NCBI GenBank assembly: GCA_963737905.1
Contig: CAVTUQ010000037.1
Location: 64,001-128,000, forward strand
Source of the DNA: an uncultured delta proteobacterium
GTDB lineage: Bacteria; Desulfobacterota; Binatia; UBA9968
DNA length: 64,000 nt
Direction of reading: 5' to 3'
Part shown: one piece after another, positions 43,101 through 56,385 of the stretch
Layout: every line of letters starts with the position of its first letter
How positions within the stretch are numbered: the stretch's first letter is position 1
Program-made: the position numbers and the translations under genes
Notes under the pieces: model-generated
What the model was told of the DNA's origin: nothing
What the model saw: only the letters and a program-made list of their open reading frames with translations
Database searches by the model: none

Positions 43101-43967
43101 CTATTTATCGATATCTCGGTGTTTGGCATGGACGGGGAATTTATCCTTGCTTAATCTTTTCTGCAGCTCCTCAACCAGGACAACAGAGCGATGTCGTCCC
43201 CCCGTACATCCCAAGGCAAGGGTCAAACTGCTTTTTCCCTCCCGTTCGTACAGAGGTAACGTAAACTCCAAAAGCGCCAGAAGCCGATCGAGAAATATCC
43301 GCGTCTCTTCGACTTTGAGGACATACTCTTTAACCTCGCGTTCCAGACCGCTTTTTGCTCTGAGTTCCTGGACGAAATGTGGATTGGGGAGGAATCGAGC
43401 ATCGAAAATGATATCGGTGTCGTGCGGAATGCCATACTTGTATCCGAAGGAGGTCAGAAACACAGTCATACGGCGGGAGTCTGAGATCTGGCAAAAATTC
43501 TCCTCCATCTCACTCTTCAGCTGGTGAACATTCAACTCACTCGTATCGATCACCTTATCCGCGAGTTCCCGCATGCCTTCCAACGCTTTACGCTCCCGCG
43601 TAATCCCCTCCTGAATCGATCCTTGACCCGCCTGGGGGTGCGGGCGCCGAGTCTCATTAAATCGGCGCAGCAATACCTCATCCGAGGCATCGAAGAAAAG
43701 GACTTGGACATGATGGCCAGCGGCGCGCATCTCAGTTAAGACTTCCGGCCAAGGTTGCAGGAACTGGCCGCCTCTTAAATCAACGCCGAGGGCGATCCGT
43801 TTGATCTCTTCTTGATACCCTTGGCAAAGATCAATGAATTTTGGGATCAACAGCGCGGGCAAGTTGTCGATGCAGAAGAAGCCGTTGTCTTCTAACGCGT
43901 GGATAGCACCGCTTTTCCCCGAACCGGAAAGGCCGGTGATGATGAAGATATCCAGACCATCGGCCAT
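43101..43967 (-). CDS. rapZ: RNase adapter RapZ
   Basis: TGLSGSGKS, ETRRPHP, SFGYKYG, GCTGGRHRSV, HRDI. Confidence 0.96.
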   Translation of the reverse strand: MADGLDIFIITGLSGSGKSGAIHALEDNGFFCIDNLPALLIPKFIDLCQGYQEEIKRIALGVDLRGGQFLQPWPEVLTEMRAAGHHVQVLFFDASDEVLLRRFNETRRPHPQAGQGSIQEGITRERKALEGMRELADKVIDTSELNVHQLKSEMEENFCQISDSRRMTVFLTSFGYKYGIPHDTDIIFDARFLPNPHFVQELRAKSGLEREVKEYVLKVEETRIFLDRLLALLEFTLPLYEREGKSSLTLALGCTGGRHRSVVLVEELQKRLSKDKFPVHAKHRDIDK

Positions 43968-43973
43968 AAGGGG

Positions 43974-44435
43974 TCAGAACTTTTGATCTTCTTGGGCGAT
44001 GATTTTGAAGATATCTTGCCCCGTCTTCCCTTCGATAAGGCGGCTGCGAAAAGTGGGGTCCTTGAGCAATCGGGAGATTCTCGCCAATGCTTTTAGGTGA
44101 TCGGCGGCTGCATTCTCCGGGGCGATCAACACGAAAAACAAGTGCGTCGGTCCGCCATCGAGAGAAGCGAAATCGATTCCCTCCAGACTACGGGCGAAGA
44201 TTCCGACCACGCGTTCGACCCCCCGAAGCTTTCCATGCGGGATCGCCACGCCTTCACCAATGGCCGTGGTGCTGATCCGTTCCCGTTCCAATAAAACTTC
44301 AAGAACCTTTCGCTCATCCAGCTCTGGATGATTAGCAACCAACCCGGCCGCCATTTCTTTTAGGACAGCATTTTTTTCGCGCGCCGTGAGTGCAGGGATG
44401 ACCGCTTCCTCAGTCAGAAAATCTGTAATCTTCAC
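43974..44435 (-). CDS. ptsN: PTS EIIA (Ntr-type)
   Basis: ERERISTTAIGEGVAIPH, HLKALARISRLL. Confidence 0.92.
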   Translation of the reverse strand: MKITDFLTEEAVIPALTAREKNAVLKEMAAGLVANHPELDERKVLEVLLERERISTTAIGEGVAIPHGKLRGVERVVGIFARSLEGIDFASLDGGPTHLFFVLIAPENAAADHLKALARISRLLKDPTFRSRLIEGKTGQDIFKIIAQEDQKF

Positions 44436-44749
44436 TCTTTCGCCCTTCTTCGGTTAAGCTTGGTCTTTTCTTTTTGCTTTTGCACCTGGCGCTGAAGCTT
44501 GTCAATCACTAAGTCAATGGCTGAATAGAGATCGTCGGTTTCTTCCTTGCCGTGGATCATGGCTCCATGCGTATGCAGCTCGATTTCCGCCGTATGGCGT
44601 TCCTTAGAGTCCACGGAAAGAACCACATGGGCTTCCAAAGACCGTGAGAAATGCCGTCCGAGGCGGTGGACTTTCTCTTCAGCATAACGTTTCAACGCGT
44701 CCGTGGGTTCCATGTGGCGGAAAGTCACCGCAACTTTCACGTCGCTCAT
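44432..44749 (-). CDS. hpf: Ribosome hibernation factor (short form)
   Basis: FRHMEPTDALKRY, DLYSAID; directly downstream of rpoN. Confidence 0.92.
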   Translation of the reverse strand: MSDVKVAVTFRHMEPTDALKRYAEEKVHRLGRHFSRSLEAHVVLSVDSKERHTAEIELHTHGAMIHGKEETDDLYSAIDLVIDKLQRQVQKQKEKTKLNRRRAKE

Positions 44750-44772
44750 TGTGAAATCCACCCCTTCGCCGC

Positions 44773-46245
44773 TTATTTTCTGAAGTAGGGCTGTCTCCGC
44801 TTCGACGAGGGAAGAATGCCCATGGCCTCCCGGTACTTGGCCACCGTACGACGCGCGATATCGATCGAGTCGTTCGACAAAAGCGCGGCGATGTGTTGGT
44901 CGCTGTGGGGTTTTCGCGGGTCTTCGGAGGCGATAATGCCGCGGATTTTCTCCTTTACACTTTCGCTCGCGACGTCGTCCCCGTTACCGCTCTTGAGACC
45001 GCTTTGGAAAAAGAACTTGAGCTCAAACAGCCCCTGCGGTGTGTGCACGTACTTGTTCGCCGTGGCTCGACTCACCGTGGATTCATGCATGTGTATATCT
45101 TCAGCCACATCCCGAAGCACCATGGGTTTTAGCTGGCTCACTCCGTGATCGAGAAATTCCAGTTGAAATTTAAAAATGCTTTGGGTCACGCGATAGAGGG
45201 TTTGTTGTCGCTGCTGAATGCTTTTGATCAACCATGTCGCTGCGCGCACCTTCTCTTGGAGGTATTGGCGCGCCTGTTCTTCTGCCGCGCCTTCCTGGCC
45301 CGCCATGCGCCGGTAAAGAGAACTTACCCTTAACCGCGGCACACCGTCGTCGTTCAAGTAGATGACATATTCGTTCCCGATTTTCTCCACGAAGACGTCG
45401 GGCAAAACGGTAAGAACTTCCTCCTGCCCGAAACCACGGGACGGCTTCGGCTCAAGGGAGGCAATCACATGAGCCGCATCCGCGATTTCATCCACGGTAA
45501 CGCCCATCTCGCGAGCCATCTTTTCGTATCGTTTGGATTCCAGGTAATTCAGGTAATCGCGCACGATTCGAGCCGCCAAGCTATCACCGAACTGGAGACT
45601 CTCAAGCTGGACCAGGAGACATTCCCTGAGATCACGCGCTGCAACCCCTACCGGATCAAAGAAATGAATGCGCTTTAGAACTTTCTCGGCTTCCTCAGCG
45701 CTACTTTCTGTAGCCTTGCAGAGCTCCTCTAGAGACAGGGCCAAGTAGCCATTCTCGTCCAAGTTGCCGATGATGTAAAACCCGATGCTCTCTTCGCGTT
45801 CAGAGATCTTCGAGAGACGAAGTTGCCAAATCAGATGATCTTCGAGCGAGCTCTTCTTGGTTAAGCTATTCTCCCAGGAGGGCGGGCTGTCACCATCGTC
45901 TCCGGTGGCCTCGGCGGTCAGAGATCCGTGGATGGAGTTGGAATGGGTATCGAGATATTCTTGCCAGTCCAACGTACCGATCTTGTCAACGGCAGGTTCG
46001 CGGTTGATCACCGGCTCCGTTATTGACTCCGCGCCATCGGGTGCCAACTCCAACTTGGGTTGGTCTCCATTTTCACTCTCTTCGGTGGTTCCTTCCTCTA
46101 GGGCGGGGTTATCCTGCAACTCCTTCGAGATCGTCTCCTGTAATTCGAGACGGGACAGCTGAAGCAGCTTGATCGCCTGCTGCAGCTGGGGTGTCATGAC
46201 CAATTGCTGCGCGAGTTTCTGGACCTGACGAATCTCTAGTGCCAT
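44773..46245 (-). CDS. rpoN: RNA polymerase sigma-54 factor
   Basis: MTPQLQQAIKLLQL, HESTVSRA, ARRTVAKYRE (RpoN box). Confidence 0.98.
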   Translation of the reverse strand: MALEIRQVQKLAQQLVMTPQLQQAIKLLQLSRLELQETISKELQDNPALEEGTTEESENGDQPKLELAPDGAESITEPVINREPAVDKIGTLDWQEYLDTHSNSIHGSLTAEATGDDGDSPPSWENSLTKKSSLEDHLIWQLRLSKISEREESIGFYIIGNLDENGYLALSLEELCKATESSAEEAEKVLKRIHFFDPVGVAARDLRECLLVQLESLQFGDSLAARIVRDYLNYLESKRYEKMAREMGVTVDEIADAAHVIASLEPKPSRGFGQEEVLTVLPDVFVEKIGNEYVIYLNDDGVPRLRVSSLYRRMAGQEGAAEEQARQYLQEKVRAATWLIKSIQQRQQTLYRVTQSIFKFQLEFLDHGVSQLKPMVLRDVAEDIHMHESTVSRATANKYVHTPQGLFELKFFFQSGLKSGNGDDVASESVKEKIRGIIASEDPRKPHSDQHIAALLSNDSIDIARRTVAKYREAMGILPSSKRRQPYFRK

Positions 46246-46247
46246 AA

Positions 46248-46970
46248 CTAAAACTTAAAACCTTCTCCCAAATAAAATTTTCTCGCCTTCGTGCTCGAGG
46301 CGATCTTGTCCGGCGTTCCTTCTTCCAGAACGGTGCCTTCGCTAAGAATATAGGCTCGGTCACAAATTCCCAACGTCTCTCGGACATTGTGATCGGTGAT
46401 GAGAATCCCGATTCCGCTCGCGATCAATCTACGGATGATTTTCTGAATTTCGGCAACGGCGATGGGATCCACACCCGTAAAAGGTTCGTCGAGAAGAACA
46501 AAGTAAGGAGAAAGGACCAAGGCACGGGCAATTTCTACTCTTCGCCGCTCTCCACCCGATAACGTAAACGCCCTGTGGTCGGCTAGGTGATCTACACCGA
46601 GCATTTTCATAAGCGCCTGACATCTCTCTTCCTGTTGCGCGCCGCTGAGATCAAGGGTCTGCAAAATCGCAAAGAGATTATCCTCTACGGTTAGGCGGCG
46701 AAAAACCGACGATTCCTGCGGAAGATAGCTGATTCCCGCCCGCGCCCGCTGGTAAATGGGCGCGGCGGTCAGATCCTGATCGTTCAAAAGCACCTTACCC
46801 TCGTCCGGTTGAACCAAGCCGACCATGATATGAAACGTCGTGGTTTTCCCTGCGCCATTGGGGCCAAGCAAGCCAACAATCTCACCACCTCTAACCTCAA
46901 TATTGACTCCGTTGACGACGCGACGACCGCTGTAGGATTTTGCCACCGCCTCCGCTGTAAGAACGCTCAT
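46248..46970 (-). CDS. lptB: LPS export ABC ATPase
   Basis: GPNGAGKTT, YLPQESSVFR, LSGGERRR, LDEPFTGVDP. Confidence 0.96.
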   Translation of the reverse strand: MSVLTAEAVAKSYSGRRVVNGVNIEVRGGEIVGLLGPNGAGKTTTFHIMVGLVQPDEGKVLLNDQDLTAAPIYQRARAGISYLPQESSVFRRLTVEDNLFAILQTLDLSGAQQEERCQALMKMLGVDHLADHRAFTLSGGERRRVEIARALVLSPYFVLLDEPFTGVDPIAVAEIQKIIRRLIASGIGILITDHNVRETLGICDRAYILSEGTVLEEGTPDKIASSTKARKFYLGEGFKF

Positions 46971-46972
46971 CT

Positions 46973-47542
46973 CTAATTACTCGGAGCGGTTTCTCCTTTG
47001 TCCTGCTTCCCTAGCTCTTCGGGAAATATCGTCGCCTTCACCCTTACTTTGCCGTCTCCTTCAGCCACAGCTTTATCCTGCTCGACAAAATAGATGACCC
47101 GCGATCCACTGATTTGGCTATTGCCTTGCCGCATAATCGGATTACCGGTCATCGTCACCGTTTTGGCCTGGTCGTCAAATACCGCCTTCTCTCCCGTGGC
47201 TACCCGATCGCCTTGCGTGGCGTTCACTTTCCCCTCGGCAACGATTTGCTTAATCTGCTTCATATCCGAAGTATATTCGGCGGTCAGGGTCTCACTTCTT
47301 ATGGTCATATCTCCTTGGATTGTAACCACATGCCCCTTATACGTGATCGTACCCTTGGTCTGATCAAATTCCATCCAGTCGGAGTTTATGTAAATAGGAT
47401 CCTTTTTGTTGAGTTCAAACCCCGGTCCGCCCTTTTTCTTCGACTCATCTTTCTCCGGCGTCGCAGCGTCGCCTAGCGCAATCACCATGGAAGCAGATAA
47501 GAGGAAAAAAAATAGCGATACCCTTAGCACTGAATAACCCAT
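46973..47542 (-). CDS. lptA: LPS transport periplasmic protein
   Basis: Signal peptide, PIYINSD, OstA-like beta pattern, position in the lpt operon. Confidence 0.9.
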   Translation of the reverse strand: MGYSVLRVSLFFFLLSASMVIALGDAATPEKDESKKKGGPGFELNKKDPIYINSDWMEFDQTKGTITYKGHVVTIQGDMTIRSETLTAEYTSDMKQIKQIVAEGKVNATQGDRVATGEKAVFDDQAKTVTMTGNPIMRQGNSQISGSRVIYFVEQDKAVAEGDGKVRVKATIFPEELGKQDKGETAPSN

Positions 47543-48172
47543 TTACCCTCCGCTCATCTGGTTCGGGCCGGATTTTTTGTCTTTTCTTGCCACCTTGTCA
47601 GGCTCGATCTTGGTCTTGACGTTCTGCATCAAGCGCACTTTTTTGACCTCCATTTCAATCTCCATCCGCGATCCTTCTACTTCCAGGCCGTTCCCCACCA
47701 CGGTTGCTCGCTTCGGTAAAACAATCCGTCCAGTGTCGGCGAAATAGGTCGCTTCCTCGGACTTCAGCACGTACCCCTGATAGGTTACTTGGACCTCACC
47801 CTGGAGCTGCATTTTCTCCAACTCTTTCTCGTTAAAGAATAGCCGCGCACTATTGCCGGTTGTTTCAGCGGTCTCGCCTTGTTTGTTGTAGTAGTAAAAG
47901 CGTGGCTTTTTTATGACCGCTTCTTTCTGCTCCTTGAAATAGTTTGCCTCATCGCCGAAGAGTTCCCACAGCTTTTTTCCATTTTCGATTTTTGCACGGC
48001 GAAAATCCTTCATCTGAAGCGCCGACTCTGGAATATAATCCAGCGCCTTAAGTGGATTTTTTCTGATCTCCTCGGCCTTCATAATCCAAAGACTCTCGGC
48101 GACTTTGTAGCCCACACCTCCCAGAGATAGAAAAATGACCACCAGCAATATGAGCCTTTTACGCCTACGCAT
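47543..48172 (-). CDS. lptC: LPS export protein LptC
   Basis: N-terminal TM anchor, beta-jellyroll pattern, position between kdsC and lptA. Confidence 0.85.
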   Translation of the reverse strand: MRRRKRLILLVVIFLSLGGVGYKVAESLWIMKAEEIRKNPLKALDYIPESALQMKDFRRAKIENGKKLWELFGDEANYFKEQKEAVIKKPRFYYYNKQGETAETTGNSARLFFNEKELEKMQLQGEVQVTYQGYVLKSEEATYFADTGRIVLPKRATVVGNGLEVEGSRMEIEMEVKKVRLMQNVKTKIEPDKVARKDKKSGPNQMSGG

Positions 48173-48279: not shown

Positions 48280-48807
48280 TTAGCGCTCTGTGAGATCCTT
48301 CCACATATTCTGCGCTTTAAGTACCAGCTCTGAAACCTCCCTCACGGCCCCCCTTCCTCCCCCACTTTTAGTAACGTAATCGACCCGCGTTTTAAGACCT
48401 GGCCAACCATCCCTAACCGCAATCGCCAACCCCACCTGTCGCAATACGGGTAGATCCAGAATATCATCTCCCACATAAGCGATTTGCTCGTCCTTAAGTC
48501 CGGTTTTCCGTTTAATACGAATGTAGATCTCGGCCTTGTTTTTCACACCTTGATGGACAATGGTTACGCCTAGTTCTTTCGCGCGATGGCGCACAATATT
48601 GGAGTAACGTCCGGTGATAAAGCCGACTCTGATTCCGCAACGGATAAGCAACGTGATGCCTTGGCCGTCGCGCACATCGAAGCGTTTGGCCTCCACTCCC
48701 CGATCGTCGAGGATGATGCCGCCGTCCGTGAGAACGCCATCGACGTCAAGGAGGATGAGTCTTATTTTGGCGGCTTTCTTTTGCACGCCGGGAGAGATGT
48801 GCTTCAC
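48280..48807 (-). CDS. kdsC: KDO 8-phosphate phosphatase
   Basis: LDVDGVLTDG, AYVGDD..D, GGRGAVRE. Confidence 0.95.
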   Translation of the reverse strand: MKHISPGVQKKAAKIRLILLDVDGVLTDGGIILDDRGVEAKRFDVRDGQGITLLIRCGIRVGFITGRYSNIVRHRAKELGVTIVHQGVKNKAEIYIRIKRKTGLKDEQIAYVGDDILDLPVLRQVGLAIAVRDGWPGLKTRVDYVTKSGGGRGAVREVSELVLKAQNMWKDLTER

Positions 48808-48813
48808 CGCTTG

Positions 48814-49803
48814 CTAAACGATCCCGGCTTTGAGGAGGTCGTGAATGTGAAGGACCCCAATCGGTACCCTATGACCGGGTTTGTCCACAACAAAAAGCGA
48901 GGTGATCGGGCGGGGCACATTCTCTTCCATCTTTACCAGAGCCTGTGATGCGAGGGCATCCTTCTCGATCGATTTCGGGTTTAAGGTCATAATTTCTTTC
49001 GCTCTCTTGCTGAGAACGCCATCGCCGTGGGCTTGCAGTCCTCTCCGCAAGTCGCCGTCGGTGATAACCCCAATCAGATCACCGCGTTTATCGGTAACTC
49101 CCGTGACACCCAAACGCTTCGAAGTGATGACTAGAACGGCCTCCTTCATGAGAGTTTCTTCATCTACCAGCGGTAAATCGGCATCCCGATGCATCAAGTC
49201 CTCGACCCGAAGCAGCAATTTGCGGCCGAGTATTCCCCCCGGATGGCGCAGCGCAAAATCCTCTTCTTTGAACCCCTTTTTCTCTAAGAGAATAACCGCA
49301 AGGGCATCCCCCAGAGCGAGCGCCGCGGTGGTACTCGCCGTCGGCGACAGCCCGAGAGGGCAGGCCTCTTCCATGACGCCTGCATCGAGAACGACGTCAG
49401 CCGCACGGGAAAGGGTTGAGCCGTGATTCCCGGTCATGACGATGAGCCTCACACCGATACGCTTAAGAATGGGGATCAAGGTTAAAATCTCTTCGGTCTC
49501 CCCGCTATTGGAGACGGCGAGAACAACGTCTCCTTCCTTAATCATCCCCATGTCGCCGTGATTTGCATCCCCAGCATGAAGGAAAAAAGAAGGTGTGCCC
49601 ATGCTCGAAAAGGTAGCAGCGATTTTTCGGCAAATCAGCCCAGATTTTCCCAACCCGGTAACGACCACTTTGCCGCGACAGTCGTCAAGCAATTCGACCG
49701 CTTGGATAAAGCGATCATCAAGGCGATCGATCAGCGAAACAATACCTGTCGCTTCGATGTTCAGCACTTCTCTCGCTCGCTGCAAGATGACGGCTTTGTT
49801 CAC
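48814..49803 (-). CDS. kdsD: Arabinose 5-phosphate isomerase (KpsF/GutQ)
   Basis: GLGKSG, HGDMG, SNSGET, PTASTT, HPGG, CBS pair. Confidence 0.95.
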   Translation of the reverse strand: MNKAVILQRAREVLNIEATGIVSLIDRLDDRFIQAVELLDDCRGKVVVTGLGKSGLICRKIAATFSSMGTPSFFLHAGDANHGDMGMIKEGDVVLAVSNSGETEEILTLIPILKRIGVRLIVMTGNHGSTLSRAADVVLDAGVMEEACPLGLSPTASTTAALALGDALAVILLEKKGFKEEDFALRHPGGILGRKLLLRVEDLMHRDADLPLVDEETLMKEAVLVITSKRLGVTGVTDKRGDLIGVITDGDLRRGLQAHGDGVLSKRAKEIMTLNPKSIEKDALASQALVKMEENVPRPITSLFVVDKPGHRVPIGVLHIHDLLKAGIV

Positions 49804-50636
49804 GTCCCCAATTCCTGTTTCAAGATGCCATCAATTTCCTTAACAATCCGCAGCACTCCTTCAAACTCCTGCAATGGCAGTGAGTTGGGACCGTCACTGA
49901 GCGCTTGATCCGGATTTTCGTGAACTTCCATGAAGAGCGCATCGACACCCACAGCGACCCCGGCGCGCGCCAACGGGCCAATGTATTTTCTTTCACCGCC
50001 GGATGCTTTTCCTAACCCGCCGGGAAGCTGCAAGCTGTGGGTGGCATCGAAGACCACAGGATACCCGAGTTCTCGCATAATCAGCAACGACCGCATGTCG
50101 GAAACCAAATTGTTGTAGCCGAAGGAAACTCCCCGTTCGGTCAGTAAGATTTGATCGTTGTTGGCGGAGCGTATTTTGTCGACGATATTGCCAATATCCC
50201 AAGGCGCCAGAAACTGCCCTTTCTTTACATTGACGACTTTCCCTGATTGAGCGACCGCGACAACGAAGTCTGTCTGCCGGCAGAGGAACGCGGGGATCTG
50301 GAGCACATCGGCGACTTCGCTCACAGGCGCAACTTGCTCTCTCTCATGCACGTCCGTCAATACGGGCACCCGCATCTCTCTTTTGACCTCGGCGAGGATT
50401 TCCAAGCCCTTGTCCAATCCCGGCCCGCGATAGGAATCGGCTGATGAACGATTCGCCTTATCGTAGGAAGATTTGAAGATGTAGGGAACCCCAACCCGAT
50501 CAGCGACTGCTTTAAGCGCCGAAGCGTGTCTTAAGGCCGACTCCCTGCTTTCGATCACGCAAGGACCGGCGATAACCGCAAGGGGGCGCCCGGCACCGAT
50601 CTCGATATTTCCTACTTTTACGCGCTTGGTGCTCAT
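49800..50636 (-). CDS. kdsA: KDO 8-phosphate synthase
   Basis: AGPCVIES, KANRSS, PAFLCRQTD, DATHS, SDGPN; start taken as ATG 50636. Confidence 0.96.
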   Translation of the reverse strand: MSTKRVKVGNIEIGAGRPLAVIAGPCVIESRESALRHASALKAVADRVGVPYIFKSSYDKANRSSADSYRGPGLDKGLEILAEVKREMRVPVLTDVHEREQVAPVSEVADVLQIPAFLCRQTDFVVAVAQSGKVVNVKKGQFLAPWDIGNIVDKIRSANNDQILLTERGVSFGYNNLVSDMRSLLIMRELGYPVVFDATHSLQLPGGLGKASGGERKYIGPLARAGVAVGVDALFMEVHENPDQALSDGPNSLPLQEFEGVLRIVKEIDGILKQELGT

Positions 50637-50665
50637 GGATAAAAAGGCCCGACGGCTCGCAACAA

Positions 50666-52321
<1,656 letters not shown>

Positions 52322-53095
52322 TCAGTTCCTATGCTGTCTCCAATATTTTTCCGCCTTTGCCAAATCCTCCGCCGTATCGACCTCTACGGATCGCTCTTCC
52401 ACGGCTGCAACAAATATCCGATGACCGTACGCCAAAGCCCGGAGCTGCTCAAGACTTTCGATTCGCTCCAGCGCCGTGGGCCGCAACCGCGAAAACTTCA
52501 GCAGAAAATCACGCCGATAGACATAAAGGCCTATATGGCGATTACCCCATAATCGGCTTTCTGGACGGCGTCCTGTTTTCCGATCATTGAGATCAACGGC
52601 GCCATTCCGAACATAGGGAATCGGCGAACGGGAAAAATACAGCGCAAAGCCCTTACGATCTGTAAGAACCTTGACGATGTTCGGGTCGCGCCATTCCGCT
52701 TCATCAAAAATCGGCGTACCGATGGTGCCCATGGGAATCGAGCGGTCACGGCGCATGGGGCGAACCGCACGCGTGATCGTATCGGACTGAATAAACGGCA
52801 AATCCCCTTGTACATTTACGAACCAATCCGCCTTGATCTTTCGTGCCACCTCAGCCACACGATCCGTCCCGCTGGCGTGGTGCTTCGATGTCATCATCAC
52901 CTCGCCGCCAAACCCCCGGACTGTTTCCTCCACCCGCCGGTCGTCGGTAGCCACCAAAACCCGATTTAAACCTCTCGCCTTTGACGCACTTTCGTAAACA
53001 TGCTGGATCATCGGTTTGCCGCCGATTCTGGCTAAAGGCTTTCCCGGAAGCCGGGTCGAACCATAGCGCGCCGGAATGATTGCCACGACAGCCAT
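52322..53095 (-). CDS. kdsB: CMP-KDO synthetase
   Basis: IPARYGSTRLPGKPL, SGTDR, NVQGD, LYFSRSPIP, ESLEQLRAL. Confidence 0.96.
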   Translation of the reverse strand: MAVVAIIPARYGSTRLPGKPLARIGGKPMIQHVYESASKARGLNRVLVATDDRRVEETVRGFGGEVMMTSKHHASGTDRVAEVARKIKADWFVNVQGDLPFIQSDTITRAVRPMRRDRSIPMGTIGTPIFDEAEWRDPNIVKVLTDRKGFALYFSRSPIPYVRNGAVDLNDRKTGRRPESRLWGNRHIGLYVYRRDFLLKFSRLRPTALERIESLEQLRALAYGHRIFVAAVEERSVEVDTAEDLAKAEKYWRQHRN

Positions 53096-53157
53096 CGGTT
53101 TACTGTTTTATAGCTACCCTGAGAAACGGAAGAGACCGAAAATTGCGCGCCCGCTCC

Positions 53158-53201
53158 AAAAATAAAAAACCGCAATGGCCTTCTAGGAAAGCGCATCACG
53201 G
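53158..53201 (-). terminator. Leader terminator (attenuator) upstream of kdsB-pyrG
   Basis: CCGUGAUGCGCUUUC-CUA-GAAGGCCAUUGCGG followed by UUUUUUAUUUUU. Confidence 0.8.
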
Positions 53202-53207
53202 ACTTAA

Positions 53208-53236
53208 AATATACGCCGAGGCCGAAAGGGTGTCAA
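53208..53236 (-). promoter_or_regulatory. Sigma70 promoter of the kdsB-pyrG operon
   Basis: TTGACA-N17-TATATT, followed by TTAAG-TCCG. Confidence 0.85.
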
Positions 53237-53607
53237 TGACGAATCGCAGAAGTTTCTCTACGATCTCGGATTATTCACCTTACGAGGGAAAGCATGACCG
53301 AACCGAGGAGTGAGCCTCGAAGCGAGCGGGCACAGGAGCGTAAAAACACACCGACTTAACTGGTGCTTGACTAAAAGCTCGCCTTTCTTAAGCAAAGTAT
53401 GCTTCACCACTCAAATTTGCAGGCCTCCTCAAGGTAGAGGTCCATTGCCCGCGACCGGAGAGGCTTACTCCTCGGGCCGTCTTACCCCGGGAATGAACCG
53501 TGCTAGCAACCTTTTGGGGGAGCATTAGAAAAAAGATCGGCACTGAAACTTGACTTATTATTGCCGGCCTATGATAGGAGTGACATTAAGAATCCATAAG
53601 GACAGGC

Positions 53608-54543
53608 ATGACGGACCTCATTAAGATCAACGCAGGATTCGCTACCATCGGGCAAGGTGCCGGGCCGATGATGGTGACGTGGAAAGCCGACCTGTTTCAG
53701 AAATATGGCCTGGCTGTCGAGAAACCCGCCATCATGGGCGGCGCGAAGGGCGTCGTGCGCGGCTTGATGTCAGGGGAGATCCAATTCGGTAATCTGGCAG
53801 CGCCGGCACCGCTCAGAGCCAATGTTAAGGGTGAAGCGGATTTGATCTTTTTGACCGGGGGTATCAATCAGCAATTCATCATGGGAAAACCCGGTATCAC
53901 CGACCGTAGAGACTTGGCGGGCAAAAAAATGGGTTTCGTTGGCGATGGAGGTTTGAACGATGCCCTGGTGCAATTTGTCATCGAAAAGCTGAACGCCACG
54001 GGTATACGGGGCTTGCAGAAGGAACCCATTCCGGCCGGCGGTGACAAAGAGCTCGAAGCGCTTCTGAGCGGCAGGTGCGACGCGATTGTCATCACACCTC
54101 CGGAGTCCGTTTACGGTCGAAGAAGAGGTTGCAAGTACCTCGTCGATTTCGCCGAATACGGGTTGAACTACGCCCTCGGAGGGATCGCGGCTCGTCGCGA
54201 TTACGTTGAAGAGAATCCTGAAATTACGAGGAAGTTTATCAAAGCCTATGTCGAAGGAATGCACCGTTATCGCACAGACCGAGAGTTCACGGTCGACGTC
54301 CAAGCCGAATACAGCGGCATCGCGGATCGAAGCGTGGCGGAGGAAACCTACGACTTGACCCAGCCAGGCATGCCGAGCGTTCCCTACCCTGTTGTCTCTT
54401 CCCTCCAAACGTTGCTCGATTTCATGGCCAAGGAACTTCCTGAGGCCAGAGACGCTGATGCGAGGCGATTTGTCGACGATCGGTTTATCCGCGAGCTTGA
54501 CGAGAGCGGATTTATCGCCTCGTTGTCCAACCAACGTCGATGA
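53608..54543 (+). CDS. NMT1/THI5-like substrate-binding-fold protein without an evident signal peptide
   Basis: LFQKYGL, DLAGKKMG, FIKAYVEG, FVDDRFIRELDESG similar to 2616-3593. Confidence 0.8.
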   Translation: MTDLIKINAGFATIGQGAGPMMVTWKADLFQKYGLAVEKPAIMGGAKGVVRGLMSGEIQFGNLAAPAPLRANVKGEADLIFLTGGINQQFIMGKPGITDRRDLAGKKMGFVGDGGLNDALVQFVIEKLNATGIRGLQKEPIPAGGDKELEALLSGRCDAIVITPPESVYGRRRGCKYLVDFAEYGLNYALGGIAARRDYVEENPEITRKFIKAYVEGMHRYRTDREFTVDVQAEYSGIADRSVAEETYDLTQPGMPSVPYPVVSSLQTLLDFMAKELPEARDADARRFVDDRFIRELDESGFIASLSNQRR

Positions 54544-54555
54544 CGAGCATCCCCC

Positions 54556-55563
54556 ATGGCCCGGTTACAAAGATGGTTGGTCCTTTTCCTGCCTTTGTTT
54601 GTTGGCTCGCTTCCAATCGCGCGCGCCGCGTCAACGGATGCTACATCCGAGGCTGCGCGGCGTGAGGGCGAAGTCGTATTCTACGCTTCGATGAATTTAG
54701 GTGAGGCCAACATCATGATCGCCGAGTTCGAAAAGCGTTATCCGTTTATAAAAGTTAAACTCAATCGAGCGGGCAGCGAAAAGCTTTTGACCCGGGTCCT
54801 CGCCGAGGCCAGGGCTAAGAGGGTTTCCGCTGACGTCATTCAAACGGTCGAATTTAGCATGCATATCCTCAAACGCAGCGGCGTGCTGGCGCGCCACGTT
54901 TCTCCGAACGATGCTCTCTATCCAAAGAATTTTAAGGAAGAAGAATTTTGGACAACCGTCTATTACAACCCCTACGTCGCTGCCTATAACACTAGGCTCG
55001 TGGCGCCGCGAATGGCACCCAAAACTTACGACGACCTCCTCGATCCCAAATGGAGAGGAAAGCTGATGATGGAGGGCACGAAGGCGGACTGGTTTGCCGG
55101 AATGTTGCAGATCATGGGACGGGAGCGCGGTCTTCAATACATGCGTCAACTCGCCAAGCAAGAACCGATGCTTCGGGAGGGACACGAGCTATTGGCACAG
55201 CTGGTGGCTGCTGGAGAAGGCCTTTGCGATATAAACATTCCGGCGTCTTCGGTGGACCGCGTGAAAGAAAAAGGCGCTCCCATCGACTGGATCGCGTTGG
55301 GCGAGGCACCGGCCATCATGGTAGGCATCGGATTAGCCTCGCAAGCCGCCCATGTAAACGCGGCCAAGCTTTTCATTGAATTTGCATTGTCTCGCGAGGG
55401 ACAGAAACTCCAGCAAGGTTTTGGGCGACTCGTCGCCCGAACCGACCTTGCATCCGAGCAGCCGGCGGCGATAAGACAAATTAAGATGGTGCCCGTTAAT
55501 CCGGAACTGGCGGAAAAGATGAACGACTACGCCAAACAACTCAGAACGATCTTCGGTAGCTGA
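54556..55563 (+). CDS. Extracellular solute-binding protein (Fe3+/thiamine/polyamine-type)
   Basis: Signal peptide, EGEVVFYAS, YNTRLV..PKTYDDLLDPKWRGK, NAAKLFIEFALSREGQ. Confidence 0.88.
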   Translation: MARLQRWLVLFLPLFVGSLPIARAASTDATSEAARREGEVVFYASMNLGEANIMIAEFEKRYPFIKVKLNRAGSEKLLTRVLAEARAKRVSADVIQTVEFSMHILKRSGVLARHVSPNDALYPKNFKEEEFWTTVYYNPYVAAYNTRLVAPRMAPKTYDDLLDPKWRGKLMMEGTKADWFAGMLQIMGRERGLQYMRQLAKQEPMLREGHELLAQLVAAGEGLCDINIPASSVDRVKEKGAPIDWIALGEAPAIMVGIGLASQAAHVNAAKLFIEFALSREGQKLQQGFGRLVARTDLASEQPAAIRQIKMVPVNPELAEKMNDYAKQLRTIFGS

Positions 55564-55611
55564 AGAGCCTTGATCAGCGCCACAGCCTATTGAAAAAAAA
55601 GGAGTCATTCT

Positions 55612-56385
55612 ATGCGTATTATGTTCTTGAACCATTCCTTCGTGCGTCATTCAACGGCATTGGAAGCTCACATTAGAAAGCTTCTCGCGAGCTATGCCTC
55701 ACCCGGTACGACGTTTGAATTGGCGTATCCTGATGATCTCGGCGGCGGGGCAGTATTGAGCCTCTTGGAGGAACGAAAAGCCCTCTCCGGCCTGCATCAT
55801 ATCTTGGAAACTCCGGCCCTCGTGCAAAAGGCCATCGAGGCTGAGCGTTCAGGGTTCGATGCCGTGATGCAAAGCAATACCTTTGATCCTGGAGTAGAAG
55901 CCAGCCGGCTTGCTGTGCGCATACCGGTGATCGGTCTGCTACGCGCTTCGCTTCACTTTGCCGCCAGCATCTGCGACCGCTTTGGTCTGATCGTTCCCCT
56001 CGAGACCCACATGCCGCACACCATGAGATTGGTGCAAAGCTATGGGATGACCCCTTTTGTCTGCGGCATGAGAACAGTGGGTCTCTATGATACCGGCGAT
56101 CTATCCGGTTACCATGACGTTGTCGTCGAGCGCACCCTGGCCGTCGGTAAAGAGCTAGTGGAGCAAGGTGCCCAGGCGATTATCCCGTTGGGAGGCAAGA
56201 TTTATCCTTATGTTGTCACCCCGGAGGAGCTAGAGCCGCATCTCGGGGTGCCCGTCATCAATACCAAAGCCGTGGGAGTGGCCTACGCCGAGCTGATGGT
56301 GCGGTCAAAGATCAGCCACAGCATAAAGGCTTATCCCTGCCCGACCGGACTCTCTCCTGAGGCAGTCTCCAAACGCTCGAAGTGA
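55612..56385 (+). CDS. Asp/Glu/hydantoin racemase-fold protein lacking both catalytic Cys
   Basis: GFDAVMQSNTFDPGVEASR..IPVIG, GAQAIIPLGG, LGVPVI. Confidence 0.8.
   Translation: MRIMFLNHSFVRHSTALEAHIRKLLASYASPGTTFELAYPDDLGGGAVLSLLEERKALSGLHHILETPALVQKAIEAERSGFDAVMQSNTFDPGVEASRLAVRIPVIGLLRASLHFAASICDRFGLIVPLETHMPHTMRLVQSYGMTPFVCGMRTVGLYDTGDLSGYHDVVVERTLAVGKELVEQGAQAIIPLGGKIYPYVVTPEELEPHLGVPVINTKAVGVAYAELMVRSKISHSIKAYPCPTGLSPEAVSKRSK

Follow-up and report, generated by a model that had tools for sequence, protein, structure and literature searches.

A candidate attenuator ahead of kdsB-pyrG in uncultured Binatia, in which start-site choice may build or break a terminator

Introduction

Can the choice of the first transcribed base decide whether a whole operon is transcribed? 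This question is raised by a short element ahead of kdsB and pyrG in an uncultured delta proteobacterium of the class Binatia (GenBank assembly GCA_963737905.1, contig CAVTUQ010000037.1). The two genes encode the synthetase of cytidine monophosphate-3-deoxy-D-manno-octulosonate (CMP-KDO) and cytidine triphosphate (CTP) synthase. The DNA analyzed here, referred to as the window, is a stretch of 64,000 nucleotides (nt) corresponding to positions 64,001 to 128,000 of the forward strand of the contig, and the element occupies window positions 53158 to 53236.

An earlier reading of these letters, the original prediction, proposed that the element senses CTP: a transcript started at one base would complete a terminator hairpin, and a transcript started two bases later would leave it incomplete. 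In this study, we examined the element in the window, in its relatives and in sequenced genomes at large. We propose that it is a protein- and ligand-free attenuator embedded in the promoter of kdsB-pyrG-kdsA-kdsD-kdsC, in which a start at C7 would lead to termination and a start at G9 to read-through, and we give this proposal an even chance of being correct.

Results

A promoter that runs into a putative terminator

The original prediction described a near-consensus promoter, TTGACA and TATATT with a 17-nt spacer, followed by TTAAG and by T6-C7-C8-G9, and all of these are found on the minus strand at the places given (Table 1). The hexamers match the consensus at 11 of 12 positions and form the best promoter-like site between 52000 and 54500 in a consensus scan; their 17-nt spacing falls within the 16-18 nt rule, as would be expected of a sigma70-type promoter. 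Bases are numbered from the 3' end of the -10 hexamer, where the order T1 T2 A3 A4 G5 precedes T6. C7 and C8 open a hairpin that in the predicted fold comprises, from C7, 8 base pairs (bp), a bulged C, 6 bp and a CUA loop, the two C's pairing with G53170 and G53171. The hairpin directly abuts U6AU5, as had been claimed, and the kdsB ATG (53095) follows 62 nt past the end of the U-tract, where about 60 nt had been stated. Such a GC-closed stem-loop abutting a U-run is the architecture of an intrinsic terminator, and the leader of this CTP synthase transcription unit thus appears to carry one ahead of kdsB-pyrG. A simple terminator scan, whose rule allows 0-2 nt between stem and T-run, did not list the kdsB leader hairpin, probably due to the bulge in its stem.

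The two candidate transcripts are predicted to fold differently. RNA beginning at C7 folds with -16.5 kcal/mol (z -4.38), and 0 of 200 shuffled sequences did as well, versus -11.9 kcal/mol (z -2.77) for RNA beginning at G9. In the fold of the latter the two 3' G's are single-stranded beside the U-run, which bears out what the prediction had said of this RNA.

The transcription unit joins the whole CMP-KDO pathway to the CTP-making enzyme, and no regulator gene is present within kdsB-pyrG-kdsA-kdsD-kdsC. Between the terminator and kdsB, the consensus scan found no second promoter-like site; close relatives have, in the downstream leader, a word resembling TTGAC that no -10 hexamer accompanies. 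As essential genes lie behind the terminator with no second promoter-like site before kdsB, read-through must occur.

Table 1. Features of the kdsB-pyrG locus, in window coordinates
Feature	Position	Strand	Basis or remark
-35 hexamer TTGACA	53231..53236	minus	sequence scan; TTGAC invariant in 32/32 kdsB-anchored relatives
-10 hexamer TATATT, 17-nt spacer to -35	53208..53213	minus	sequence scan
Start region T6-C7-C8-G9	53199..53202	minus	T6 53202, C7 53201, C8 53200, G9 53199; candidate alternative starts C7 and G9
Predicted terminator hairpin, 14 bp, one bulged C, loop CUA	53170..53201	minus	fold
U-tract U6-A-U5, abutting stem	53158..53169	minus	sequence
Remaining leader, terminator to kdsB ATG, 62 nt	53096..53157	minus	sequence
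kdsB (CMP-KDO synthetase), first gene of unit	52322..53095	minus	Pfam PF02348 CTP_transf_3, E 1.6e-56
pyrG (CTP synthase)	50666..52312	minus	Pfam PF06418, E 8.8e-124, and PF00117
kdsA	49800-50810	minus	Pfam DAHP_synth_1
kdsA, kdsD (SIS+CBS), kdsC (HAD), tightly packed behind pyrG	48280..50810	minus	Pfam, gene layout

Conservation of the element in two families

DNA similarity to relatives starts exactly at the -35 hexamer. We aligned 32 distinct leaders, 28 from a family denoted f1 and 4 from f2 (families of the class are given by number throughout), which had been located via kdsB and not via the pattern itself. Invariant in this alignment are TTGAC, the TA and final T of the -10 hexamer, the A at position 3, and C7, C8, G9 and U10; among relatives in general, the -10 hexamer occurs at the same place as TATATT, TATAGT, TATTAT, TATGAT, TAGTAT or TAATAT. 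Stem cells are paired in 93.1% of cases, versus 42-54% after a shift of the 3' partners by 1-3 columns. The basal pairs C7-G, C8-G and G9-C are each present in 32/32 leaders, while the next pairs change and still pair (UG 27/UA 5; GU 17/AU 8/GC 7; AU 30/GC 2; UA 26/UG 4/CG 2). The inner pairs have thus changed in a compensatory manner, which supports the hairpin structure. Because the basal pairs are fixed while the inner pairs vary and keep pairing, base identity, beyond pairing alone, is under selection at the start positions.

The distance between promoter and stem is equally constant. When 401 genomes of the class were scanned with 2-10 nt allowed between the -10 hexamer and CCG, every genuine leader match had exactly 6 nt, the sixth base being T or C. 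Matches were obtained in 48/63 genomes of f1, 4/4 of f2 and 0/27 of f3, together with two chance-like matches in the other 17 families. For the 15 f1 genomes that failed the strict pattern, all eight readable leaders (that of G028, and seven read in a separate look-up) still have N5-T-CCG...CGG and a T-run, and what made them fail was solely a variant -10 hexamer (TATGAT, TAATAT, TAGTAT) or an interruption in the T-run. A DNA query with the leader and kdsB gave no match in six further f1 genomes of 82-99% completeness (G274, G338, G360, G381, G406, G014), and G309 stops at a contig edge. Without the unpublished genomes G006, G012 and G402, the f1 counts are 46/61 pattern matches and 7/7 readable leaders. 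In f2 the element is present in all 5 genomes examined, that is, the four of the scan and G045. Together, the alignment and the scan bear out the conserved spacing and covariation on which the prediction had staked itself, with the qualification that covariation concerns the inner pairs and the basal ones are invariant.

Among 70 distinct relatives of this type, the T-run follows the closing GG with a spacer of 0 nt (51 relatives) or 1 nt (19 relatives), and a purine stands at the seventh position after GG in 51/70. The downstream leader, from terminator to ATG, differs in length among relatives; in most of f1, as in the window, 60-75 nt separate the U-tract from the ATG.

The same design in other families

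We then took kdsB upstream regions from 58 further genomes belonging to 14 other families outside f1-f3. A promoter-like site followed by N5 and YCCG is present in 32/58, and the full terminator form (a stem opened by C7C8 and closed by CGG, then a T-run) in 16/58, namely in f7 (2/2), f11 (4/8), f12 (4/7), f14 (1/1), f16 (3/3), f17 (1/1) and f18 (1/1). The same two tests on the reverse strand gave 0/58 and 0/58. Hairpins in these families comprise 23-93 nt, have predicted energies of -16 to -57 kcal/mol and share no sequence relationship with the f1 hairpin; all nevertheless open with CCGU(R) and close with (Y)RCGG. The pattern behind the table of 17 such hairpins forced CCGT and CGG; an unforced listing shows the same starts. 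The weak G-C/U-G/G-U base that the prediction had assigned to the G9-started stem is mainly a property of f1: in the 17 terminator-form leaders outside f1 and f2 the fifth stem pair is G-C in 11, and their hairpins fall in the energy range just given.

What evolution has kept is the register from the -10 hexamer to the stem, the identity of C7, C8, G9 and U10, CGG directly before the U-run, and the U-run itself. The hairpin body has not been kept between families, although it is just the part that one would expect to be conserved in an aptamer or in a hairpin bound by a protein. With the interior so free to change, hardly any scope is left for an aptamer or for an RNA-binding protein that recognizes a specific sequence. 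This pattern of constraint is what would be expected if the decisive events took place at initiation and at the junction of stem and U-tract. The design is spread class-wide, recurring in at least nine families that have diverged further, which goes beyond what the original prediction knew.

The same constraints bear on a different account, in which the start is fixed and the leader holds a leaky attenuator that stops a set fraction of transcripts, or one tuned by a NusA/NusG-type protein, an RNA-binding protein or a small RNA. We regard this as rather unlikely, if a serious contender. It has a studied precedent in the Escherichia coli greA leader, in which two-thirds of the transcripts from strong promoters are described as ending at the leader terminator, independent of growth phase (PMC2836576), and it needs no unusual C starts. 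The lower stem of f1, CCGUGAUGCGC, is nearly invariant and could be a binding site. However, with only the CCGU/RCGG closure and the -10 register kept and the interior unrelated, a specific binder would have almost nothing to recognise, and tuning by a factor finds no regulator gene in the unit. A fixed start also leaves unexplained why the stem begins at exactly position 7 and why the basal pairs never covary. Finally, one would hardly expect a constitutive brake to be conserved across the class behind a near-consensus promoter, even though greA provides a precedent.

A bulged C with tandem G-U pairs, considered as an aptamer or protein site, was rejected: these features vary (UG/UA, GU/AU/GC), and the bulge is missing in several leaders.

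Base 6 offers another point of comparison. It is T in 66/70 relatives of the f1/f2 type and C in 15/17 of the terminator-form leaders outside f1 and f2, where it creates a CCC run. Nucleotides might thus be sensed in another manner, by reiterative addition of C at C6-C8 or, kinetically, by uridine or adenosine triphosphate (UTP, ATP) at the U-tract, slower elongation giving more termination. For reiterative addition speak the CCC run, the 10.1% slippage described for the CCC initiation region of the E. coli pyrG promoter (PMC12709180) and the fact that reiterative control of pyrG is established in Bacillus (PMC7039003). Yet T6 leaves two C's in nearly all f1/f2 relatives, and slippage typically needs at least three identical bases (PMC6524683); moreover, extra 5' C's would have no partner beyond GG. 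Kinetic sensing of UTP would be generic to all terminators and explains neither the register nor the CC. We consider sensing of either kind very improbable.

Some leaders differ in what follows the start motif. In f7, f11, f14, f16, f17 and f18 the U-run abuts the kdsB ATG and there is no Shine-Dalgarno sequence; if the hairpin acts as its sequence suggests, the whole 5' untranslated region of an essential operon would be a terminator in these families. Leaders with the U-run straight into the ATG are L131 and L132 (f7), L133 (f18), L166 and L190 (f14), L170, L173 and L175 (f16), L171 (f17), and L157, L160, L163 and L185 (f11). The leaders of f8 (L146, L167, L168, L172, L176, L178, L179, L145) are 50-137 nt long and have YCCGU and a 5' helix CCGUGG/CCACGG with no U-run; they may be decayed, or the same start motif may lead to another output in them. 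In f3 (L032-L034, L036, L037, L041-L046) TTGACAG-N-TATGAT is followed by C6-G7-G8-(G/A)9-C10, and a long GC-rich hairpin beginning with GG at position 7 in all 11 leaders is followed by CCUC, with no U-run. In four of these 11 the RNA would begin with GGGCUC, the same six bases as the initially transcribed region of Bacillus pyrG. Families f5, f6, f10, f13 and f15 are without the motif.

The forms that have a 5' helix and no U-tract invite the view that the hairpin stabilizes the mRNA against decay that depends on its 5' end, with the U-rich leader loading ribosomes and termination a side effect. The f3 hairpins and the f8 helix are in line with it, as are the families in which the U-run meets the ATG, and the -10 register is explained if the stem must begin at +1. 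Nevertheless, a GC-closed stem with 6-8 U's is a canonical intrinsic terminator regardless, so the essential genes would still lie behind a stop signal. A stabilizer needs neither C over G at the 5' end nor an invariant CCG/CGG, and with the U-tract as far from the ATG as it is in the window and most of f1, a U-rich ribosome site is impossible there. We judge this explanation improbable.

Across both groups of relatives, the predicted folds repeat what was seen in the window. RNA started at G9 leaves GG unpaired in 70/70 relatives of the f1/f2 type and in 17/17 from other families, and the loss of the two C's costs a mean of about 4 kcal/mol. Hairpins outside f1 and f2 are stable, and this loss is small against their long stems; any switch, if real, must therefore act through the geometry of the junction between stem and U-tract and not through overall stability.

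Occurrence within the genome and among species

The genome to which the window belongs (6.7 Mb) has 335 promoter-like sites matching the consensus at 10 or more of 12 positions. Only 3 of them run into a hairpin and T-run beginning 4-13 nt past the -10 hexamer, and the kdsB leader is by far the strongest of the three. A relaxed scan gave 26 candidates, among which the kdsB leader stands out, all others having promoters of 8-10/12. The hairpin pattern occurs once in this genome. YCCG at positions 6-9 is found at 6 of the 335 sites, against about 3.4 expected, and is not a general promoter feature in this genome.

Beyond this genome, we scanned one genome per species, about 186,000 species in all, for the strict pattern TTGAC, N18-19, TATWNT, N5, YCCGTRRYG, N12-28, CGGNTTTT. 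This gave 70 loci where, by our own estimate, about 0.3 would be expected by chance. Metagenome-assembled genomes account for 69 of the 70, mostly titled Candidatus Binatia or Deltaproteobacteria. In 67/67 checkable loci kdsB lies downstream in the same orientation, nearly always followed by pyrG and kdsA; two loci stop at a contig edge. The seventieth match, L048, sits inside a glycosyltransferase open reading frame of a low-GC organism and was dismissed as chance. A generic form of the pattern, run on 401 genomes of the phylum, matched in only 3 genomes that do not belong to the class. Neither kdsB nor pyrG lies downstream in any of them, and on this ground these too were dismissed as chance.

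This constant placement bears on whether the element could be an independent small-RNA gene, yielding a free RNA, about 45 nt long, that has a function of its own, while kdsB is expressed otherwise. The unit is self-contained and has a near-consensus promoter, and in GraL there is a precedent for a short leader RNA acting in its own right (PMC2836576). Against it stand the position directly upstream of kdsB at every checkable locus, the kdsB ATG directly after the U-run in several families, the lack of any other promoter-like site that serves kdsB, and a hairpin interior that is not kept between families. An independent small RNA is thus the sort of explanation that we would be greatly surprised to see upheld.

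No known RNA family accounts for the element. Rfam 15, searched with E up to 1, reported no family over window positions 50000-56000, and 16 diverse leaders likewise matched no family, apart from one chance-level match below the gathering score; the search for a known match that the prediction had proposed thus came back empty for the window leader and for its relatives.

RNA data

Four soil metatranscriptome runs cover small shares (0.04-0.08) of the stretch with assembled contigs of relatives at 90-95% identity. Two RNA-library contigs from two studies (X4 record 22, 52997-53182, and X1 record 2) bridge the U-tract into kdsB. These are weakly indicative of read-through transcripts, with which they are compatible; contigs cannot show RNA ends, and DNA carry-over is possible. 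No RNA contig spans 53212-53287, a gap that we do not take as evidence on start sites.

Neighbouring features

Directly behind the KDO/pyrG unit and separated from it by a 107-nt gap, the minus strand carries the row lptC-lptA-lptB-rpoN-hpf-ptsN-rapZ (43101-48172). A weak promoter-like site, TTTACA-17-TATTTT with TG, lies inside the gap before lptC (48226-48198).

On the other side, between the kdsB promoter and a divergent gene at 53608, there is a dispersed repeat of about 175 nt (53302-53475) that resembles a miniature inverted-repeat transposable element. Its terminal inverted repeats are about 17 bp long (ACCGAGGAGYGAGCCTC ... GAGGCTYRCTCCTCGGT), and longer copies match 53267-53507. This genome has 23 further matches in all and 16 copies that reach 160 nt or more, and many copies occur in relatives; the core, 53302-53344, occurs in many RNA-library contigs with different flanks. 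The repeat (53302-53475) has no Rfam match.

A block TTGACT-N14-TATGATAGGAGTG is located on the plus strand (53550-53586) upstream of the divergent gene, which encodes an NMT1/THI5-like binding protein (53608-54543). Its reverse complement is conserved upstream of the kdsB promoter in many relatives. The block probably belongs to the promoter and ribosome site of the divergent gene. A 14-nt spacing is odd for sigma70.

A second small conserved hairpin with a T-run (TATTCTTCGGCCGTAGCGCGGGTGGAGCGATACGGATTTT and variants), unrelated to kdsB, was seen at G196:C9, G335:C166 and G231:C98 (genus g18).

Discussion

How would such an element work? We infer the start sites, their dependence on nucleotide pools, the efficiency of termination and the differing fates of the two RNAs from the features described above. 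RNA polymerase at the sigma70-type promoter would start at C7, a favoured position with a disfavoured base, taking CTP as both first and second nucleotide. Alternatively it would start at G9, a less favoured position in a favoured pyrimidine-purine-pyrimidine context, taking guanosine triphosphate (GTP) and then UTP. Since positions 6-8 are TCC and positions 8-10 are CGU, the preference for position and the preference for base oppose each other. By analogy with pyrC and pyrD, C7 and C8-G9-U10 would then be in balanced competition.

Both preferences are described in published work. Start use at positions 6, 7, 8 and 9 averages 8, 55, 29 and 7%, with position 7 modal; starts at a purine preceded by a pyrimidine (position -1) are preferred; the choice depends on the concentration of the initiating substrate; and discriminators other than GGG move starts downstream (PMC5730371). 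YRY/YRR "start elements" are described in 49 species (bioRxiv 10.1101/2025.01.23.634641).

In RNA started at C7, the two C's would pair with the GG before the U-tract, the stem would reach the U-tract and transcription would end after about 40-45 nt. In RNA started at G9, the stem would be 2 nt short, two rG:dC pairs would remain at the upstream edge of the hybrid, termination would fail and the operon would be transcribed. The bottom 2-3 stem pairs have been proposed to be critical for termination, and disrupting basal pairing lowers termination in the greA leader (PMC2836576). In another account, termination requires the last two stem bases at the edge of hairpin and hybrid, and RU after the U-run (bioRxiv 10.64898/2026.05.29.728758). 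The G's that pair with C7 and C8 here occupy that junction.

High CTP would consequently turn the operon off, and low CTP with ample GTP and UTP would turn it on. More broadly, the promoter and terminator by themselves might form a nucleotide comparator in which a CTP+CTP start is set against a GTP+UTP start and decides termination about 40 nt later, an idea that we offer tentatively, as falling a little short of an even chance. GTP is an activator of CTP synthase. The comparator would accordingly weigh the product of that enzyme (CTP) against the substrate (UTP) and activator of the same enzyme. Within the class Binatia such a device would be ancient, the core (register, YCCGU start, RCGG closure, U-run) having been kept while the hairpin body was replaced, and the forms in f8 and f9 would be derived, with the same start motif and another output.

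Several points weigh against this proposal. The switching itself is something that we infer, in organisms of a lineage described as yet-uncultured (PMC8262859). Given the preference for purine starts, either G9 alone or C7 alone could be the sole start. Because the basal pairs are fixed, covariation does not prove that the RNA contains C7 and C8 or that these pair with GG. Outside f1 and f2, predicted hairpins that lack the two C's still reach -12 to -53 kcal/mol; with hairpins of the G9 type this stable and terminator rules that tolerate 0-2 nt, read-through from G9 is not assured. YCCG and a 5' helix without a T-run are retained in f8 (8/8) and f9 (7/9); in these two families the motif may have another role or output. 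The lower stem of f1 and the A at positions 3-4 after the -10 hexamer are more conserved than the model requires. The logic of feedback is clear for pyrG and less so for the KDO genes. Finally, nearly all of 70 sampled genomes have kdsB next to pyrG, whether or not they carry the motif. We had considered a correlation between motif and pyrG as evidence and discarded it as uninformative, the adjacency being class-wide and including families free of the motif.

If the proposal is true, the element would be about the smallest conceivable attenuator, some 80 bp including its promoter, and would work without leader peptide, protein, aptamer or alternative hairpin. It would serve as a natural test bed for asking how much the last two stem pairs at the junction of hairpin and hybrid weigh, an open question in the study of terminators, and as a compact nucleotide-responsive part for synthetic biology. 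It would also show that comparative sequence makes gene regulation readable in a class of bacteria that is wholly uncultured.

Comparison with known systems

The start region of enteric pyrC is numbered T6-C7-C8-G9, and the kdsB leader likewise has a pyrimidine-C-C-G at positions 6-9. In pyrC and pyrD of E. coli and Salmonella, as described in PMC6524683, C-C-G lies in the start window past the -10 hexamer and no regulatory protein is needed: RNA started at C when CTP/GTP is high has two extra 5' C's that complete a hairpin, and RNA started at G is without them. The predicted folds at our locus agree in that the two extra C's complete a hairpin that G-started RNA cannot form. The output differs, as the pyrC/pyrD hairpin hides the ribosome-binding site and acts on translation (PMC6524683). 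The kdsB leader has no such sequestration; its hairpin and U6AU5 leave 62 nt to the ATG and would act by stopping transcription. The target genes are different too, being pyrG and the KDO pathway in an uncultured class.

The pyrG leader of Bacillus subtilis and other Gram-positive bacteria shares with the kdsB leader a CTP synthase target and a leader terminator. According to PMC7039003, the polymerase reads the signal at initiation there too, and the 5' end of the RNA sets the fate of the terminator with no protein involved: transcription starts at GGGC, and at low CTP up to 10 G's are added, which pair with the pyrimidine-rich 5' arm and so prevent termination. In contrast, the kdsB leader has a TCCG start, no G run and no source of poly-G; the start of its terminator coincides with +1, and the switch that we propose takes two bases away from the stem and adds no antiterminator. 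Most of f1 has CUUUCC in the 5' arm of the terminator, a sequence that other families have not kept. Both precedents invoked by the original prediction, the pyrC hairpin and G addition at Bacillus pyrG, thus agree with these sources; the numbering of the pyrC start is general background.

Other systems resemble the element in part. At E. coli greA (GraL), strong promoters are followed by an intrinsic terminator within about 50 nt and the gene needs read-through; the leader terminator is described as conserved in structure and as ending most transcripts (PMC2836576). Termination there seems constitutive and the stem does not begin at +1, unlike the kdsB leader, whose stem is locked to the -10 hexamer and starts with CC. 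Promoter-coupled terminators, as described by Fletcher et al. (bioRxiv 10.64898/2026.08.19.745784), likewise couple the two elements within a few tens of bp; in their case the terminator of the upstream unit precedes or overlaps the next promoter, whereas the kdsB terminator lies downstream and on its own transcript. Riboswitch aptamers embedded in terminators, such as the HMP-PP thiS motif (PMC6478431), are similar in having a tiny leader in which the terminator hairpin is the regulator. They have a conserved ligand-binding core, whereas the interior of the kdsB leader hairpin is unrelated between families.

In the literature covered, from which subscription journals were largely absent, we came across no account of a terminator built or broken by the choice of start site, and none of a kdsB-pyrG leader for this lineage. 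The element thus appears to combine start-site choice of the pyrC type with attenuation of the pyrG type, a combination hitherto undescribed in that literature. If this is true, it would represent a third way in which RNA polymerase itself senses pyrimidine nucleotides: beside start-site choice that acts on translation, as at pyrC and pyrD, and reiterative G addition that leads to antitermination, as at Bacillus pyrG, there would be start-site choice coupled to intrinsic termination.

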